A DNA stretch of 64,000 bases from a virus, in the IMG/VR virus record IMGVR_UViG_3300050144_000081, positions 5,068 through 69,067 of that record, one strand, 5' to 3'. Made by a program: the position numbers and the translations under genes. Below the pieces are notes generated by a model. That model saw only the letters and a program-made list of their open reading frames with translations. It ran no database searches and had not been told where the DNA came from. Shown piece by piece: positions 37,698 to 58,291 of this stretch. Numbering within the stretch: position 1 is the stretch's first letter; each line of letters begins with the position of its first letter.

Positions 37698-38476
37698 TCG
37701 AACTGCTTGCACCTCAGGGGTCGCCTGAGTGGCTTGCTGGCCGTGCCGGCGTGTGCACGGCCAGCATGTATGAGACAGCGCTGGCCCGTACTGGTGGGCT
37801 GGATGAGCGGCAGGCCGCCTACGTCGCACTGGTCCGTTCGGGCATGGCACCTCAATTGGCAGCAGAGGCGGCTGGTTTCAAGGCGATGCCGCGTGCTCAG
37901 GCCGTGCAGGATGCCATCGCTGGTCTGCCGACTGGCGACTGGACCGATGGGGCGCGCGACTACGCTTTCCGGCTGTCGATCGAGCGCCGAAGCAAGCAGC
38001 CGCTGGACGATGGCGTGGAGACGTACTGGACCCGCCGTGGGCATGAACTGGAACAGGAAGCAATCGAGGCCTACGAGGACCGCACCGGCAACTTGGTGCG
38101 CCGCGTTGGCCTGGTGCTGACCGACGACCGGCGCTTCGGTGCCAGTGCAGACGGGCTGGTAGCTCGGGATGGCGGGGTTGAAGTCAAGTGCTGGGTGGAT
38201 GCGGCGAAGCTGCGCAAGGTGCTACTCGATCGCAACTCCGCCGCTGTGCGCCGGCAGTGCCTGGGCGGCATGTGGGTCACCGGCAGGAAGTGGTGGGACT
38301 TCGTGCTGTACTGCCCTGCGCTGGCGGTGTGCGGCCTTGACATGACTGTCATCCGGATCAACCGGGATGACGACGAAATCAACCGCATGGAACTTGACTT
38401 GCTCCGGTTCGACCGTCTGGTGGATGAGTATGGCCAGCGCATTGATGCCATGGCGCAGGAACAGGCCACCGCCTAG
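37694..38476 (+). CDS. YqaJ / lambda-exonuclease family recombination nuclease
   Basis: QGSPEWLAGRAG..TAS...RGHELE...GASADGL.....GVEVKC...Q..GGMWVTGR.WWDFV.Y. Confidence 0.9.
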   Translation: MIELLAPQGSPEWLAGRAGVCTASMYETALARTGGLDERQAAYVALVRSGMAPQLAAEAAGFKAMPRAQAVQDAIAGLPTGDWTDGARDYAFRLSIERRSKQPLDDGVETYWTRRGHELEQEAIEAYEDRTGNLVRRVGLVLTDDRRFGASADGLVARDGGVEVKCWVDAAKLRKVLLDRNSAAVRRQCLGGMWVTGRKWWDFVLYCPALAVCGLDMTVIRINRDDDEINRMELDLLRFDRLVDEYGQRIDAMAQEQATA

Positions 38477-39825
38477 GCCGTGGAAACGGCCCACTTCGCA
38501 AAGGGGCCGTGCTTGGTGCGAACGCCATCCAGCGCGGCCTCCCAGCGCTCCGAAATCTTCGTCAGCCATTCGACTTTCTGTTCGGTGTAGCCGTGCCGGT
38601 TGTAGACGCCTTCGATCGACGAGTCGATGTGGCCCAGCATGTTTTCGGCGACCTTGTCGGGGCAACCCATTGCGGCAAGGTGCGTCCGAACGGTGCGACG
38701 AAGGTCGTGCGAACTCCAATTTTCGACCGTGAACCTGCCGCGAGCAAGTGCCGGATGGCTGCGTGAGTGCGGCTGGTATCTGACCAGCATGCTGGCGATC
38801 GTCAACTGCTCAATGTGGTCTCGATGCCGGCCGCGGACCGGGAACAGGTACCCGCTGCCGAACAGCGCCATCCTGCGCTCCACGATGCCGCGAGCACGGC
38901 CGATGATGGGCACATTCAAGTCGAAGGCCAGCGGGTTAGATCCAACCTTCGTAAGCTCCTTTCCAAGTTTCCACCACATGGCGCCATCGTCACCCATTGA
39001 CATGGCATCTCCTCGCATCTGAACCAGTTCTGCGCCGCGGCACCCTGTCCAAAGGTAGAGCGTCAGGACATCGGCGACCAGCTCCGGGCAGATCGCTCGG
39101 TCATGCAAGTCGGCCAGCGTCAGGCCGACCTCCTCTTCCGTCAGCACGCGCTTTTGCTGCCCGATGTGCCGACCAGCCACCAGCTTTCCGCGGGATTGCA
39201 GGTTGTTCCGATGGACCAGTCTCCACCAGTTTTGCGATCCGGCAGGGATGATTCCACTGTCAAGCGCCCGGTCCCATGCCTGCGCCATGGAAGACTTGAA
39301 CCGCTTTGCCCTGACAGGCCGGTCGGAGATGCCTTCGATCAGCCGGAATACCTGAACACGTGTCAGATCTTCTGGGTACAGATCGGCCAACTGGCTTGGC
39401 GCAAGCAAGTTGTCTATCTGGCCGCGAAAGATCACCGACGTTTTCTGGTTCTTGTGCTTGTGCACCATCACTTCGCTTGCGTACCAGCGGGCCAGGCCAA
39501 TCACTGTCAGCCGGCTCTTCTCAACCTCGGCATCAGCCTTTTCTTGCTGCGCCTTCGCTCGATCCATCCGCCTATCGGCAGATGGGTCTGAGCCAGCAAG
39601 TCGAGCCGCCCTGACCTCCTCCCAGGCGACCAGCGCCCGCGAAAGTGGCATTTCTGGGTAGCTGCCCAGCTTCACCTGCTTCATCCTCCCGTCCACCGGT
39701 GACTTGTAGCGGTAGGTCCATGACTTGCTCGTCTGTGTTGCGGTGAGGCGCAATCCATCGCATCCGTCGATGATCAAGTGCGTGCCAGGGGCAAGGTTTT
39801 TCGCTGCTGCTGGGGTGAATTTCAT
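38473..39825 (-). CDS. int: Tyrosine integrase, P4-like (N-terminal arm-binding domain)
   Basis: GLRL...KSWTYRY......LGSYPE..L..A; catalytic TGCR...HDLRRT...LGH...GVYN. Confidence 0.93.
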   Translation of the reverse strand: MKFTPAAAKNLAPGTHLIIDGCDGLRLTATQTSKSWTYRYKSPVDGRMKQVKLGSYPEMPLSRALVAWEEVRAARLAGSDPSADRRMDRAKAQQEKADAEVEKSRLTVIGLARWYASEVMVHKHKNQKTSVIFRGQIDNLLAPSQLADLYPEDLTRVQVFRLIEGISDRPVRAKRFKSSMAQAWDRALDSGIIPAGSQNWWRLVHRNNLQSRGKLVAGRHIGQQKRVLTEEEVGLTLADLHDRAICPELVADVLTLYLWTGCRGAELVQMRGDAMSMGDDGAMWWKLGKELTKVGSNPLAFDLNVPIIGRARGIVERRMALFGSGYLFPVRGRHRDHIEQLTIASMLVRYQPHSRSHPALARGRFTVENWSSHDLRRTVRTHLAAMGCPDKVAENMLGHIDSSIEGVYNRHGYTEQKVEWLTKISERWEAALDGVRTKHGPFAKWAVSTA

Positions 39826-40329: not shown

Positions 40330-40371
40330 GACCATCAGATCAGTGCATGCGCATGCACTGATCTGATGGTC
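40330..40371. repeat. Perfect 42-bp palindrome
   Basis: GACCATCAGATCAGTGCATGC|GCATGCACTGATCTGATGGTC. Confidence 0.95.
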
Positions 40372-40487: not shown

Positions 40488-40573
40488 GGGTGGTGCCGTG
40501 CAGGGCACAAAGCGGCCTTGAAAGCCGTGGCGGTCAGAGATGGCCGATGGTTCGATTCCTTCACCACCCGCCA
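40488..40573 (+). tRNA. tRNA-Ser(UGA), probable 8/4 acceptor/T-stem structure
   Basis: GGGTGGTG/CACCACCC 8-bp stem, G discriminator, CCA; anticodon loop CTTGAAA; long variable arm CGGTCA-GAGA-TGGCCG; T-loop TTCGATT. Confidence 0.85.
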
Positions 40574-40574
40574 C

Positions 40575-40650
40575 GCCGGCATAGCTCAGTTGGTAGAGCA
40601 ACGGTCTTGTAAACCGTAGGTCATCCGTTCGATTCGGATTGCCGGCACCA
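40575..40650 (+). tRNA. tRNA-Thr(UGU)
   Basis: Canonical 76-nt cloverleaf: GCCGGCA/TGCCGGC, AGCTCAGTTGGTAGAGC D-arm, CTTGTAA loop, TTCGATT, ACCA. Confidence 0.96.
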
Positions 40651-40655
40651 GTTTC

Positions 40656-40698
40656 GCGGGCCTGGCCGAGCGGTTCAGGCGCCGGACTGGAATTCTGG
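40656..40698 (+). pseudogene. 5' half of a tRNA (anticodon GGA) without a recognisable T-arm or CCA
   Basis: GCGGGCC-TG-GCCGAGCGGTTCAGGCG-CCGGA-CTGGAAT-TCTGG, then the stop of a convergent ORF. Confidence 0.5.
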
Positions 40699-40917
40699 TC
40701 AAGATGGCTTGTCGACGAGGTCTTCCGCAACCGCTGGGTAGTACAGATCCTGGTGCCGATTGACCTGCTCGGCGATCGCCATGACCAGCACACGCGGCCA
40801 CACACGCGGCACGCCCTCGCGCTCGAAAAGAACCGTCATGTCGCCAGACGGGTACATCACGCCGACCTGAAGGCCTTCGCCGGACGTGGCGGGCTGCGCC
40901 TTGCTGAAGAATCCCAT
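40699..40917 (-). CDS. Small hypothetical protein
   Basis: ATG 40917 just after the endolysin stop; 72 aa. Confidence 0.5.
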   Translation of the reverse strand: MGFFSKAQPATSGEGLQVGVMYPSGDMTVLFEREGVPRVWPRVLVMAIAEQVNRHQDLYYPAVAEDLVDKPS

Positions 40918-40919
40918 GA

Positions 40920-41498
40920 TCACTCTCCCAGCGCGGCCAGCGCGCTTTGGTACAGGTTGCGCCGCTCGGCGGCATGATTCGCCTTGGCCCCTGGCCGGCC
41001 GCAGTTGACGATGCTCGACACGTTGTCGATGTCGCCCTTGTCCGCCCAGGGGTTGATCTTGTTGTCGGACCAGTAGAGGCCGGCCGCGAAGCTTCCCCAG
41101 CGGGGCAGGGTCAGCATCTCGGGGCTGATCTCGAAGTCGGGGCAATCCTTGATTCCGCGTGCCCGCAGCGCTTCCGTGACGCGCCGGTGGTTGCGCCGCC
41201 CGGTGGTCTGGATGGGGCCATGGCCACGAAACTTGAACCCATCCCCAGGCCGGTCATTGCCCAGCCCTGCAGCGCGCTTGTGGGGTGGCTCGTACTGGAG
41301 CTGTGCGTCGATCGGCCCCCAGATTTCGTACAGGACACGCAGCCGTGCCGATTCGTGCAGCAGCTGCGCCAGCAGTGCGGCAACGCGGCGTGGCGTGTTG
41401 ACCTGGAACTCCGCGCATGCAGCGGCCAGATGCGGTGCCCACGATGCAGAGGCCTTGGCCGACACGCCAAGCCCGGCCAGAAGTTCAGCGGTCAGCAT
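40920..41498 (-). CDS. Endolysin, glycoside hydrolase family 19 (chitinase-like)
   Basis: AALLAQLLHES...LGN...GDG.KFRG.G.IQ.TGR.N...A..YW...IN..AD. Confidence 0.9.
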   Translation of the reverse strand: MLTAELLAGLGVSAKASASWAPHLAAACAEFQVNTPRRVAALLAQLLHESARLRVLYEIWGPIDAQLQYEPPHKRAAGLGNDRPGDGFKFRGHGPIQTTGRRNHRRVTEALRARGIKDCPDFEISPEMLTLPRWGSFAAGLYWSDNKINPWADKGDIDNVSSIVNCGRPGAKANHAAERRNLYQSALAALGE

Positions 41499-43670: not shown

Positions 43671-45108
43671 GCGGTGGCGCCTTCGGGGGATTGGTCGAAC
43701 AGGGGCATGGTTTCGGGTGCCGCGGGGGCGGCTGGCGTCATGCTGGCCATGGCCGCCTTGATGCGAGCTTCTGCGATGGCGATGTACTCGGCTTCGCGTT
43801 CGGCGCCGATGAAGCGGAAGCCCTCCAGGACGGCAGCCTTGCCGGTGGAGCCGCTGCCACCACGCCGCCAGGTGGCGTCACGAGGCGGCACAAGTAGCGC
43901 ATGAGGTCTGTGGGCTTGACGGTGGGGTGCGTGTTGGCTCGCTCAGGCTGGCGCAGATCGCCAGTCCCTTCCTTCCAGCGACTGTCAAATTGCTCTGCGC
44001 ATCCTCGCTTCACCTCGAACCGATCAAGCCCTCCATCCCGGTCCTTTCGGCCGGCCTTCGCGCAGTAGAAGAACCGGGCTGCGCTGCCGGTGTCGCCGTA
44101 GCCGATGGCATCGTCGCCGGATGGCGCATACCCACCGCCGAACTTGTCCCCGTTCTTCTGACCGCTGCCCGTACTCTTGCCGGTCTGCGGAAACAGCGCT
44201 ACGACCTCGGGGCTTCCGTCGTGCAGGAGGTTGGCGGGCCAGCGGCCGGACCACGCCCGCCCGGCCGGCTCAGCTCGATTTGGGTTCTCCATCGCTCGGT
44301 TCTCGCTGGCATTGCGGCCGTGCTGCGTGATTGGCTCTTCGCCCACCCGGCACCCGTCGATGTTCAGCCCACCCGTGCCATGCGCCAGCACGTTGGCCGC
44401 CACGGTTCCGGCCAGTGGCTTGCGCGCCAGGATGATCGGCTCCCATGCTGGCTTCAGGGCGGTGCCCCAGCCTTGCCACTGCTTTGCGGCTTCGGTGGCC
44501 GGACCACCGAGCACAGGCACAGTGTCCTGGGCGCGATCGGTCGAGAAGTTCAGCACGTTGCCGCAGCCGGTCCACCGGTCTGGCATCTCGCCGACAACTT
44601 CCCGCTCCACGCCTGCCGCCTTGTCGATCGCCTTGGACACGTTCATGCTTTTCGGGAACCCACTCCCGAACGTCCAGGCCAGCAGCGGGGCGCCGCCGCC
44701 GTCGTGGGCATAGCCGATGCTGTCGCGCAGCTCGAACCCGGCCAGCCGGACGGCCATGCTCATCAGGTCCATGCTGCGGGTGCCGGCAAAGGCCAGCAGA
44801 TGGCCGCCGGGTTTCACCACGCGCAGGCACTCGCGCCAGATCTCGGGGCCGGGCACCCATGCGTCCCACTTCTTGCCCATGAAGCCTTTCCCCTTCGGGA
44901 TGTACGGCTCGCCGGCAATCCACGCCTTCAGGCATTCCAGCACCTCGGCTGGCTTGTGGTCACTGAGGCCGTAGGGCGGGTCGCAGACGATCGAGTCCAC
45001 GCTGTTGTCCGGCATGCCGCGCAGCACGTCCAGGCAGTCGCCGTGATACAGGGTGTAGGTGGCACTGGCGTTCTGTCCAGTGCTGGCCGGAGGGGGTGTT
45101 GCTGTCAT
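43667..45108 (-). pseudogene. N6/N4 DNA methyltransferase, frameshifted by loss of the LDPF motif
   Basis: GDCLDVL...SIVCDPPYGL...HPTVKP...VTPPGGVV, then the frame shifts to GSGSTGKAA..EG.RFIG.E; junction at about 43858. Confidence 0.85.
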
Positions 45109-45215
45109 GCGCACCTTGCTGCATCGCCTGAGAAGAGGTGCGCGGCGGGCCGGTAGGCTGCCGGTGTTCTCCCCGTCGGGATAGCCGCGCAGCCCGAAGG
45201 TTGCGCCGGGCCAAA

Positions 45216-45974
45216 TCAGCCGCCGACCGCGTTTTTCCAGTCGGTCCGGTCGAGCGCTGTCAGGCTGGCCAGCGTCATCTGCACCGAGGTGACGATGGTC
45301 TGGCCGTCGGTGGTGATCGGGTGCGTCAGCGGCTTGGAGATGGACTCGATCACCATCGGCATGTAGAAGCAGCTGCGGAAGATCATACCAATGATGCTGG
45401 GCGCCCGACTGGGGTAGACCGACCTGACGGCGCTTCCAGACTCGACCAGGTTGGTCAGAAACCCATCCTGCGCCAGATGTTCGGCCATGCTCCACTCCAT
45501 CAGCTGGTTCACAGGCTTCTTGACCTCCTTGATCGGGTCACGCAGCGCTCGGAAGTGCGCCGTCATGGTGATCTTCAGCGGTGGGCTGCCGTTGTAGATC
45601 TGGGTGCTGTTGAGCTTGGTGATCGAGGTCGATCCGGTCAGGCTGTTGGCTTGTTCCTGTGCGGCACTGAGCGCGCTGTCTGCGGCGGATCCGTTCGGAA
45701 CGTGCTTCTGCAGCGCGTTCATGATCGCACCGAAACCGCCAACTTGCAGCATTGCCGAAAACGTTGACATGCCGCTGTCTGCCGTCTGGTTCTCGAATGG
45801 ACTGGTCCAGTTCTGTGTCTGTTCCGCCGTCGCATCGGTGATCGGCGCCATGACTTGTGTGTCATCAAAGGCCTGGAATGACCGGCTGTTTCCGTCCTGT
45901 GTCATCCGGACAGGAAACCAGACGGCCATGAGGTGGGGGGACAGGCTCCCCCATTCCGACTTCAGCAGCGGCAT
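45216..45974 (-). CDS. Putative baseplate / tail-tube initiator protein
   Basis: NWTSPFE...TQIYNGSPPLKI; downstream of the sheath cluster. Confidence 0.55.
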   Translation of the reverse strand: MPLLKSEWGSLSPHLMAVWFPVRMTQDGNSRSFQAFDDTQVMAPITDATAEQTQNWTSPFENQTADSGMSTFSAMLQVGGFGAIMNALQKHVPNGSAADSALSAAQEQANSLTGSTSITKLNSTQIYNGSPPLKITMTAHFRALRDPIKEVKKPVNQLMEWSMAEHLAQDGFLTNLVESGSAVRSVYPSRAPSIIGMIFRSCFYMPMVIESISKPLTHPITTDGQTIVTSVQMTLASLTALDRTDWKNAVGG

Positions 45975-56860: not shown

Positions 56861-57013
56861 TCATGCGGCCCCGTTCATCGCGTCAATCAGCATGCGGAAT
56901 GTTTCGATGTCGGCATTGATTTCGCCAAGAATTTTTTCATGGGCGACCCCTGTAATGATTGATTCGCGCAGCGTGCGACCCACTACCCCCTTGTTCGTGG
57001 TGGGCGTTGTCAC
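56861..57013 (-). CDS. Small hypothetical protein (50 aa)
   Basis: GTGA overlap with the antirepressor stop; hand translation VTTPTTNKGVVGRTLRESIITG... Confidence 0.4.
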   Translation of the reverse strand: MTTPTTNKGVVGRTLRESIITGVAHEKILGEINADIETFRMLIDAMNGAA

Positions 57014-57873
57014 GCCACCTCCGTCGCGGCCGTCAGACCAATTTCATCCAGCAGGCATTGGAACGTGTCGATGTACCAGTGTGGCTGCGTCTCCTTCGGG
57101 CTGCTCGGGCTGGTGACGTTCTTGCCCCAGCGCGCACCCAGGCCCGTGACGCTCCAGAACTTCGATTCGGCCCCGCGCGAGGTCGGGCGCGTCATCTGCT
57201 CGATCAGGCCGGCGCTGGCCAGCAGCTTGTTGACCGCGAGCGCGCTCTTGCCGGTGCTGTGCTGCGTCAGCAGTTCCGTGAGGCTGGCGGTGGGGTGGCT
57301 GCCGATGGTGGATTCCGCTCCGGTCGGCGCGTCGACGGCGTAGACGGGCAGCATGGGCAACAGGTGCGCGGCGCCGGCCAGCTTGTGGGCCTCGCGGGTG
57401 ATGCCGAGCCGGGCCGATCCCTCCAGGCGCAGGATGTCGGCGGACATGCGGGCGCTGGTCAGGGCCAGTTCCAGCAGGACGACTGCATCACGGGACAGGC
57501 CTGGCTGCGCTTCTGGGGCGGCATAGGCTCCAGTCCTGCGGATCGCGGGGAGAACGTCCTCGAACACCCACCGCTCGAACTCCTGAGCGGCCGGCAACTT
57601 GCTGGCGATGATGAGGCGCAGAACGTCGGGCTCGGTCAGGATGCGGGCCTCTTGCGTCCGGCCGAGCGAATCGAGGATGGGGTAACGGATCGTGACCCCA
57701 CGGCAATGGTCGCCCATGGCCTTGTTCGGGTTCGTGTAGCCCAGGCGGTCGCACACGTCCTTGCCAACGAATCCAGGTTCGCCAGATTCGAGCGTGACGG
57801 CACGAACGGCCTTGCCATCGCCGGGGAAGTTGAAGGTGCGCGCTGCGGCGCTGGGGATGGTGTTGCTTGCCAT
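57010..57873 (-). CDS. Bro-N antirepressor
   Basis: FVGKDVC..LGY.NP.KA...HC...E..V.RLI..SKLP.A.EFERWVFEDVLP.IRRTG.Y; C-terminal GKN..SP...ETQPHWY. Confidence 0.9.
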   Translation of the reverse strand: MASNTIPSAAARTFNFPGDGKAVRAVTLESGEPGFVGKDVCDRLGYTNPNKAMGDHCRGVTIRYPILDSLGRTQEARILTEPDVLRLIIASKLPAAQEFERWVFEDVLPAIRRTGAYAAPEAQPGLSRDAVVLLELALTSARMSADILRLEGSARLGITREAHKLAGAAHLLPMLPVYAVDAPTGAESTIGSHPTASLTELLTQHSTGKSALAVNKLLASAGLIEQMTRPTSRGAESKFWSVTGLGARWGKNVTSPSSPKETQPHWYIDTFQCLLDEIGLTAATEVA

Positions 57874-57886
57874 GATGGCTCCAAGG

Positions 57887-57994
57887 TCAGGTTTGAACCC
57901 GCCGCCCCTCTGTCGATAGGGCGGCAGACCGTGCGGGTGACAGACCGGGACCAAGGGACCGGCAGGGCTTTCGCCCTCCCACACGGCCCGCCAT
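57887..57994 (-). CDS. Icd/Ash-like leader peptide (35 aa)
   Basis: MAGRVGGRKPCRSLGPGLSPARSAALSTEGRRVQT*, Ash-family pattern upstream of the antirepressor. Confidence 0.55.
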   Translation of the reverse strand: MAGRVGGRKPCRSLGPGLSPARSAALSTEGRRVQT

Positions 57995-58029
57995 TGAAAC
58001 TGGTGGAGCCATGCTTGCGCATCATGTCG

Positions 58030-58106
58030 TTTTCGCATGGACATGGAAAAGCCGCTTGCGCGGCCTGTGCGCCTTGATCGTTCCGGGCTGTCATCCCCGG
58101 CCACTG
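58030..58106 (-). ncRNA. C4-like antisense RNA (boundaries approximate)
   Basis: GGGATGACAGCCCGG on the minus-strand transcript is nearly complementary to CCGGTCTGTCACCC at 57935-57948 in the same transcript. Confidence 0.55.
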
Positions 58107-58291
58107 TTTTTTCAGTGGCGGACGGAATGTAGCCTCAGACGCACGATCATGTCAACTTTCGATGAATTTACGCCTTTTGCCGTGCGTCAGTCATCTGATT
58201 ATGGTGCATTTTATGTGCTTGTGATGTGCTTTCGTCTATCTTGATGTGTGCCGCACTTCTGGTGTGTAAAATTGAAAATAAGGAAGCGCCA

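Follow-up and report, generated by a model that had tools for sequence, protein, structure and literature searches.

tRNAs with acceptor/T helices of the 8/4 and 9/3 type were described by Mukai et al., who recognised them among the false positives of a tRNA-Sec model (PMC5389517). In the parts of that report drawn on here, (8/4) tRNASer is recorded from bacteriophages, Proteobacteria and rumen Clostridia, where it lies in phage tRNA clusters, and 8/4 allo-tRNAs are shown to insert serine in E. coli (PMC5389517). The same parts agree with the statement, made in a first-pass annotation of the DNA studied here, that 8/4 serine tRNAs have been reported from bacteria and phages.

Here, a tRNA gene in a 64,000-nt stretch of a virus record from IMG/VR was analysed (the whole stretch is referred to as the window). 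The tRNA belongs to the published (8/4) tRNASer class (2016/17) and is not a new kind of RNA. Sequence comparisons make it probable that the gene encodes a functional serine tRNA (UGA) of a P1-like temperate phage.

Phage context and feature map

The source record comprises 85,270 bases and was estimated to be 98% complete. Its portal protein is related to P1 Prt (27% identity, E 1e-30); the closest match was the portal of Xanthomonas phage Rb1 (91 kb; 49% identity). C4 antisense and isrK RNAs were found together with an anti-repressor (Ant) gene (Table 1), which we take to be the immunity arrangement of P1/P7, here in a phage of 64% GC. A DarB-like methyltransferase/helicase of 2,497 aa (L246:5281-12774) and two tyrosine recombinases are encoded in the record, and genes for terminase, baseplate, sheath and tube are spread across it. 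By its gene content, the record appears to represent one temperate P1-like phage of about 85 kb, far from the enterobacteria. Two tandem prophages flanking host tRNAs, with the integrase on one side and the endolysin on the other, were considered and rejected on account of the single P1-like gene set and the completeness of the record.

Table 1. Positions of the tRNA-Ser gene, its parts and other features in the window.
Feature	Position	Strand	Basis or remark
tRNA-Ser(UGA) gene, (8/4) class, 86 nt with encoded CCA	40488-40573	+	ARAGORN; tRNA-Sec-like match; family model R1
Acceptor stem, 5' strand GGGTGGTG, 8 nt	40488-40495	+	sequence; position 8 is G, usually U8
Linker CC, 2 nt, acceptor to D stem	40496-40497	+	sequence
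D arm GTGC-AGG-GCAC, 11 nt	40498-40508	+	sequence; 4-bp stem, 3-nt loop AGG
AAA 3' of the D arm	40509-40511	+	alignment A1
Anticodon arm GCGGC-CTTGAAA-GCCGT	40512-40528	+	sequence; ARAGORN
Anticodon TGA	40519-40521	+	predicted to read UCA, also UCG, possibly UCU
GG, anticodon arm to variable arm	directly 5' of 40531	+	sequence
Variable arm CGGTCA-GAGA-TGGCCG	40531-40546	+	sequence; 6-bp stem, GAGA loop
T arm ATGG-TTCGATT-CCTT	40547-40561	+	sequence; 4-bp stem, second pair U.U
Acceptor stem, 3' strand CACCACCC	40562-40569	+	sequence; 8 Watson-Crick pairs with GGGTGGTG
Discriminator G73	40570	+	sequence
Encoded CCA	40571-40573	+	sequence
tRNA-Thr(UGU), canonical	40575-40650	+	ARAGORN; RF00005 74.7 bits; 1 base downstream of tRNA-Ser
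tRNA-like 5' fragment	40655-40715	+	directly 3' of tRNA-Thr
Palindrome, 42 bp	40330-40371		GACCATCAGATCAGTGCATG/CATGCACTGATCTGATGGTC
Integrase gene	38473-39825	-	660 bp upstream of tRNA-Ser
Endolysin gene	40920-41498	-	other side of the tRNA pair
DNA methyltransferase, long ORF	43738-45495	-	
int-alpA RNA motif	45126-45191	-	45.4 bits, threshold 35.8
Ant anti-repressor gene	57010-58104	-	adjoins C4/isrK RNAs
C4 antisense RNA and isrK RNA	57917-58119	-	just upstream of Ant gene

Several further elements were observed around the tRNA pair. The fragment behind tRNA-Thr resembles the 5' half of a class-II tRNA-Ser(GGA), with a D-arm-like GGCCGAGCGGTTCAGGC and a hairpin CCGGA-CTGGAAT-TCTGG, and is without T arm and acceptor 3' strand. 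ARAGORN made no call there, and neither Rfam families nor four Comamonadaceae genomes yielded a match. A tRNA of the cluster that has decayed, or a piece of an attachment site adjoining the integrase, might account for it. The palindrome is perfect and belongs to the 660 bp of non-coding DNA that separate the integrase start from tRNA-Ser; a mir-2329 match at this site, on both strands, was spurious. The int-alpA motif was located inside or just 5' of the methyltransferase ORF and not beside the integrase.

Anatomy and scores of the tRNA-Ser gene

ARAGORN called a tRNA-Ser(tga) at exactly the boundaries given in Table 1, with the anticodon at position 32 (usually 34-35), which indicates a 5' half shorter than usual. 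The best Rfam match was the tRNA-Sec model with 39.8 bits (E 2e-6 for 700 bases; threshold 47). R1, a family covariance model of 28 relatives from which the window was held out, scored the gene at 102.4 bits (E about 4e-26). The signal is far above chance. Every stem is intact, T loop, U33, A37, G73 and CCA are canonical, and the anticodon loop CUUGAAA contains no unusual base. All parts that the first-pass annotation had named (acceptor stem, T stem, D arm, variable arm and G73) were present base for base.

Partition of the acceptor/T helix

The window sequence alone cannot separate an 8/4 from a 7/5 fold, and both are possible. C40562 has two possible partners, G40495 as the eighth acceptor pair or G40546 as the fifth T pair. 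With the second partner, a 7/5 cloverleaf would form in which G8 is unpaired, the variable stem has 5 bp and the T stem, GAUGG/CCUUC, likewise 5, and the eighth acceptor pair would be merely apparent. It had been pointed out beforehand that this fold needs a G at position 8 and breaks the closing pair of the variable arm, which is correct by sequence. The cloverleaf energies were -36.1 kcal/mol for 8/4 and -35.3 kcal/mol for 7/5, so that 7/5 is less stable by 0.8 kcal/mol only, and held-out covariance models gave the window tRNA 102.4 bits (8/4) and 102.3 bits (7/5). The unconstrained folding minimum (-37.0 kcal/mol) was not a cloverleaf and, with z = -1.6, uninformative. Since the window sequence fits 7/5 equally well, the 8/4 assignment rests on relatives.

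Relatives were found by scanning IMG/VR and GenBank phages. For a close set, 29 distinct sequences were aligned, all with a GC-AGG-GC D arm. The eighth acceptor pair (8:66) was G:C in 22 and A:U in 7 of them and was thus formed in 29/29, with a purine and never U at position 8. The closing pair of the variable arm was likewise Watson-Crick throughout (C:G 25, U:A 3, G:C 1) and covaried independently, whereas the pair that would replace it in 7/5 was G:C in 21, G.U in 4, A:U in 3 and C.C in 1 of the 29 relatives. Under 7/5, the covariation of position 8 with its 3' partner would have no reason, which disfavours this fold. Compensatory changes were also seen in four of the five anticodon-stem pairs; the second T-stem pair was weak (U.U in 17/29, G.U in 10/29).

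For a wide set, the scan was anchored on anticodon loop and T arm, and the D arm was left unconstrained. This yielded 107 distinct class-II serine tRNAs, 100 of which were of the 8/4 type. Pair 8:66 was GC in 49, AU in 40, UG in 8, UA in 2 and GU in 1 of these 100, and the variable-arm closing pair was Watson-Crick in 96. The fifth T pair of a 7/5 fold can still be formed in 76/100 relatives, but is Watson-Crick in only 46 and G.U in the other 30; it is impossible in the remaining 24 (A.C, G.G, C.C, U.U, G.A and A.A among others). G73 was found in 88/100 and U73 in 11/100, and the anticodons were UGA (93) and CGA (7). Eighth pairs G:C, A:U and U:G/U:A occurred on near-identical acceptor backgrounds (GGAAGAT-, GGAGGAT-, GGAGGGT-, GGAAGGT-), which indicates several independent switches. 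Canonical serine tRNAs from the same scans showed the opposite pattern (U8, U.C at 8:66, G:C at 49:65).

Two covariance models were built from 28 relatives, window excluded, that differed solely in their 8/4 or 7/5 annotation. The window tRNA and 34 other held-out members scored at least as high under 8/4 in 35/35 cases (+0.1 to +5.8 bits), and 7/5 was preferred by no held-out relative. Five canonical class-II tRNAs reached 24-33 bits with the family model, and here 7/5 was preferred by 2.9-4.7 bits. By these comparisons, the family folds 8/4, with the window gene as a clear member, and a 7/5 cloverleaf is quite improbable. The 8/4 fold proposed in the first-pass annotation is thus borne out by relatives and held-out models. 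Of the tools suggested there, ARAGORN called the gene and a custom 8/4 covariance model recovered it with the score given above, and covariation, which might have spoken for 7/5, favoured 8/4 instead. Covariation from more than 100 distinct phage sequences confirms the 8/4 serine tRNA as a real and widespread phage type.

D arm and anticodon stem

For the D arm, 42 distinct relatives with a 16-nt segment between acceptor and anticodon stem were compared. Its invariance in the 29-sequence alignment was imposed by the search pattern and proves nothing. The first D-stem pair was G:C in all 42; the second was U:A (20), C:G (12) or A:U (10), the third G:C (33), A:U (6) or C:G (3), and the closing pair C:G (37), A:U (2), U:A (2) or A.A (1). 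The loop was AGG in 39 and UGG in 3 sequences, and the linker CC in 24 and GC in 18. AAA followed the D arm in 40/42 relatives, a count that is partly fixed by the search pattern. Since the compensation at pair 3 and at the closing pair comes from sequences found without D-arm constraint, it supports a stem of 4 bp closed by a loop of 3 nt. The minimal D-loop noted in the first pass therefore stood, with compensatory changes at D-stem pairs 2, 3 and 4.

Other members of the 8/4 family have 4-bp or 5-bp D stems with AUGG-type tetraloops or 5-6-nt loops. Judged from these sequences, the window tRNA has the smallest D arm of the family, and the (A/U)GG loop is a recurrent sub-variant. The AGG loop still provides the two G residues, G18 and G19, that elbow contact with the T loop UUCGAUU requires. 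The anticodon stem has five covarying pairs, and its sixth position is an invariant A.G. A 3-nt D loop is among the smallest in non-organellar tRNAs that still look functional, and provides a natural test case for the least D arm that the translation machinery tolerates.

Two groups of tRNA-like sequences of about 95 nt were also encountered, as chance matches to the D-arm search pattern. One group consisted of viral contigs (L043, L044, L072, L074) and the other of Bacteroidales and Clostridia MAGs (L196, L206, L208, L210, L222). Their acceptor stem is 7 bp long (e.g. GGGCAGG/CCTGCCC), their start reads GGGC-AGG-GC[AT]C and their 5-bp T arm is normal, but no D or anticodon arms are recognisable in between.

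Detection by scanners and annotation

The Rfam general tRNA model (RF00005, threshold 29 bits) gave no match at the window tRNA-Ser and missed 14/14 relatives in loci where 47 other tRNAs were found. The model thus misses the whole class (15/15 tested, the window's own counted). ARAGORN, run with flanks included, found tRNAs in about 90 of 100 relatives, and missed 8/4 copies in, for example, L067, L061 and L015. The earlier remark that standard scanners may miss the gene consequently holds for RF00005 and not for ARAGORN, which finds the window gene and most of its relatives. In GenBank phage records, the 8/4 gene is labelled tRNA-Ser or tRNA-OTHER or is left unannotated. Because several records leave it unannotated, serine tRNAs are undercounted in phage tRNA inventories and codon-supplementation analyses.

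In five viral contigs among the closest relatives (L056, L053, L075, L061, L067), the 8/4 tRNA has anticodon CGA, and the gene directly behind it is a tRNA-Ser(GCU) recognised by the Rfam tRNA model; some of these 8/4 tRNAs share the acceptor stem of the window tRNA. Phage clusters thus mix 8/4 and standard serine tRNAs.

Distribution and host

For the distribution scan, one genome each for 185,579 bacterial and archaeal species was searched. This returned 49 loci, of which 47 were chance matches or unrelated RNAs. The AGG-loop type was found in only two of the genomes, both Comamonadaceae (Xenophilus sp. Marseille-Q4582 and Polaromonas sp. OV174). Both copies adjoin terminase and portal genes and are for this reason placed in prophages; the Xenophilus copy has acceptor stem and D arm as in the window. 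Among 301 genomes of the Xenophilus family, the 8/4 tRNA was present in one (Xenophilus), and tRNA-Thr was matched in nearly all. With 14 kb around the tRNA as query, no related prophage was found in these 301 genomes, and matches were essentially those to tRNA-Thr. The set includes one unpublished genome (G147), on which no claim rests.

Chromosomal tRNA-Thr genes of Comamonadaceae share up to 95% identity with the phage tRNA-Thr(UGU). This likeness hints at a Burkholderiales host, and the adjacent integrase could use tRNA-Thr as its integration target. The distribution points to a phage lineage of the tRNA-Ser and gives a weak hint of a Burkholderiales host. The 8/4 type would thereby also be known from a P1-like temperate phage whose host is GC-rich and of betaproteobacterial type.

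Proposed role and alternative explanations

The likely role of the tRNA is ordinary decoding of UCA, UCG and UCU. EF-Tu, RNase P and the ribosome need a 12-bp acceptor/T helix. In the predicted fold this helix is kept, split into 8 acceptor and 4 T pairs instead of 7 and 5, and because it is kept, delivery by EF-Tu is proposed. The tRNA-Ser would be co-transcribed with the adjacent tRNA-Thr(UGU), probably in one transcript; no sigma-70-like promoter was found upstream of tRNA-Ser. The host seryl-tRNA synthetase, an enzyme that ignores the anticodon, would charge it via the long variable arm and G73. The charged tRNA is expected to read UCA and UCG; with a modified U34, UCU would probably be read too. 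Jointly with tRNA-Thr(UGU), the tRNA would supplement the decoding of A/U-ending codons, whose use in this phage (64% GC) is several times that in a host of about 70% GC.

For codon counts, genes were called with a simple GC3 filter, and two Comamonadaceae genomes served as proxies, standing in for the host. Per 1000 codons, UCA was counted 4.9 times in the phage (proxy hosts 1.2 and 2.1), UCU 5.4 times (0.4 and 1.8), ACA 7.1 times (1.4 and 1.6) and ACU 4.6 times (1.3 and 1.1). For the codons assigned to tRNA-Ser, use in the phage exceeded that in the proxy Comamonadaceae hosts by a factor of 2-13. UCA, UCU, ACA and ACU are the codons of the two phage tRNAs, and the counts fit supplementation but are indicative only.

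A role against tRNA-targeting defences has been proposed for phage tRNAs and demonstrated for some (PMC10264068, PMC11555353), and mycobacterial VapC toxins cut tRNA-Ser(tga/cga/gga) within the anticodon (PMC10264068). The first-pass annotation suggested that the tRNA may resist host anticodon nucleases or tRNA-targeting defences, which is speculative. On this reading, the 8/4 body and the tiny D arm might escape host tRNA-cleaving defences, with the phage tRNA replacing depleted host tRNA-Ser and not just adding to the supply for rare codons. Such evasion would be in line with the anticodons of the phage 8/4 family, which are exactly UGA and CGA, and with a lineage almost confined to phages and prophages. 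Documented escape, however, consists of anticodon-loop changes, none of which is present in the loop CUUGAAA, and enzymes that cut the anticodon are not obviously blocked by a changed acceptor/T/D body. It also counts against evasion that we know of no tRNA-Ser-specific nuclease for the likely hosts, and we regard this explanation as unlikely. It is equally doubtful that the 11-nt D arm marks an undescribed, phage-restricted 8/4 tRNASer(UGA/CGA) lineage whose body was selected for escape from a nuclease or factor. If true, body shape, beyond anticodon-loop sequence, would be a counter-defence trait of phage tRNAs. A paper on bacterial Schlafen proteins gave no link to serine tRNAs.

The integrase gene that ends 660 bp upstream, the tRNA-like 5' fragment just downstream and the sub-threshold score with the Rfam tRNA model could also be taken as signs of a decayed or non-translational tRNA-like element, such as an attachment-site remnant by the integrase gene. 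This is very unlikely in view of the intact stems and the canonical T loop, U33, A37, G73 and CCA. Moreover, compensatory changes preserve the fold in over 100 distinct relatives, which are located in phage tRNA clusters, and no host counterpart to recombine with was found in 300 of the 301 family genomes. A selenocysteine-type or recoding tRNA (tRNASec, SelC*, missense or nonsense allo-tRNA) might be suspected from the tRNA-Sec model as best Rfam match and from the 8-bp acceptor stem with a long variable arm. Its chance is vanishingly small, given that the score lies below the family threshold, that UGA is the anticodon of a serine codon reader and is not UCA, and that both the acceptor/T helix and the D stem are shorter than in tRNASec. 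A serine anticodon separates 8/4 tRNASer from recoding allo-tRNAs. Ordinary decoding by a serine tRNA is retained as the preferred reading.

Comparison with known systems

As far as (8/4) tRNASer is described in the parts of Mukai et al. drawn on here, the window tRNA shares with it the 12-bp helix split 8/4, the location in a phage tRNA cluster, the long variable arm, G73 and the serine anticodon. Both are detected by the tRNA-Sec covariance model and not by the tRNA model. In the same parts, the D arm of allo-tRNAs is given as a long stem capped by a tetraloop, whereas in the window tRNA a D stem of 4 bp closes a 3-nt loop and AAA comes next. The anticodon stem is described there as longer than canonical; that of the window tRNA comprises 5 standard pairs plus A.G at the sixth position.

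Close copies in GenBank were found in Stenotrophomonas phages (Mendera, Moby, IME-SM1 and others), Erythrobacter phage XM05 and Xanthomonas phage RiverRider. The Menderavirus copies are 80% identical to the window tRNA over the full length and agree with it in the D arm (GUGC-AGG-GCAC) and the 8/4 layout. The tRNA-Ser of XM05 has the D arm of the window tRNA and anticodon CGA. In that of RiverRider, an AUGG tetraloop caps a D stem of 5 bp, and the eighth pair is U:A. These comparison phages are large and lytic with many tRNAs, whereas the window phage appears to be temperate and P1-like, with two tRNAs.

Bacterial tRNASec (RF01852) and the window tRNA are alike in the 8-bp acceptor stem, the compact D arm, the long variable arm and charging by seryl-tRNA synthetase (presumed here). 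They differ in the acceptor/T helix (8/5 with 13 bp in tRNASec, 8/4 with 12 bp here), the D arm (6-bp stem and 4-nt loop versus 4-bp stem and 3-nt loop) and the anticodon (UCA versus UGA). With canonical class II tRNASer(UGA), the window tRNA has in common the 17-mer of the anticodon arm, which is identical in canonical copies, the T loop, the variable arm, G73-CCA and the presumed identity elements G1:C72 and G2:C71. The canonical tRNA differs from it in that position 8 is U, the D arm is of the GGCAGAG... type and the T stem has 5 bp.
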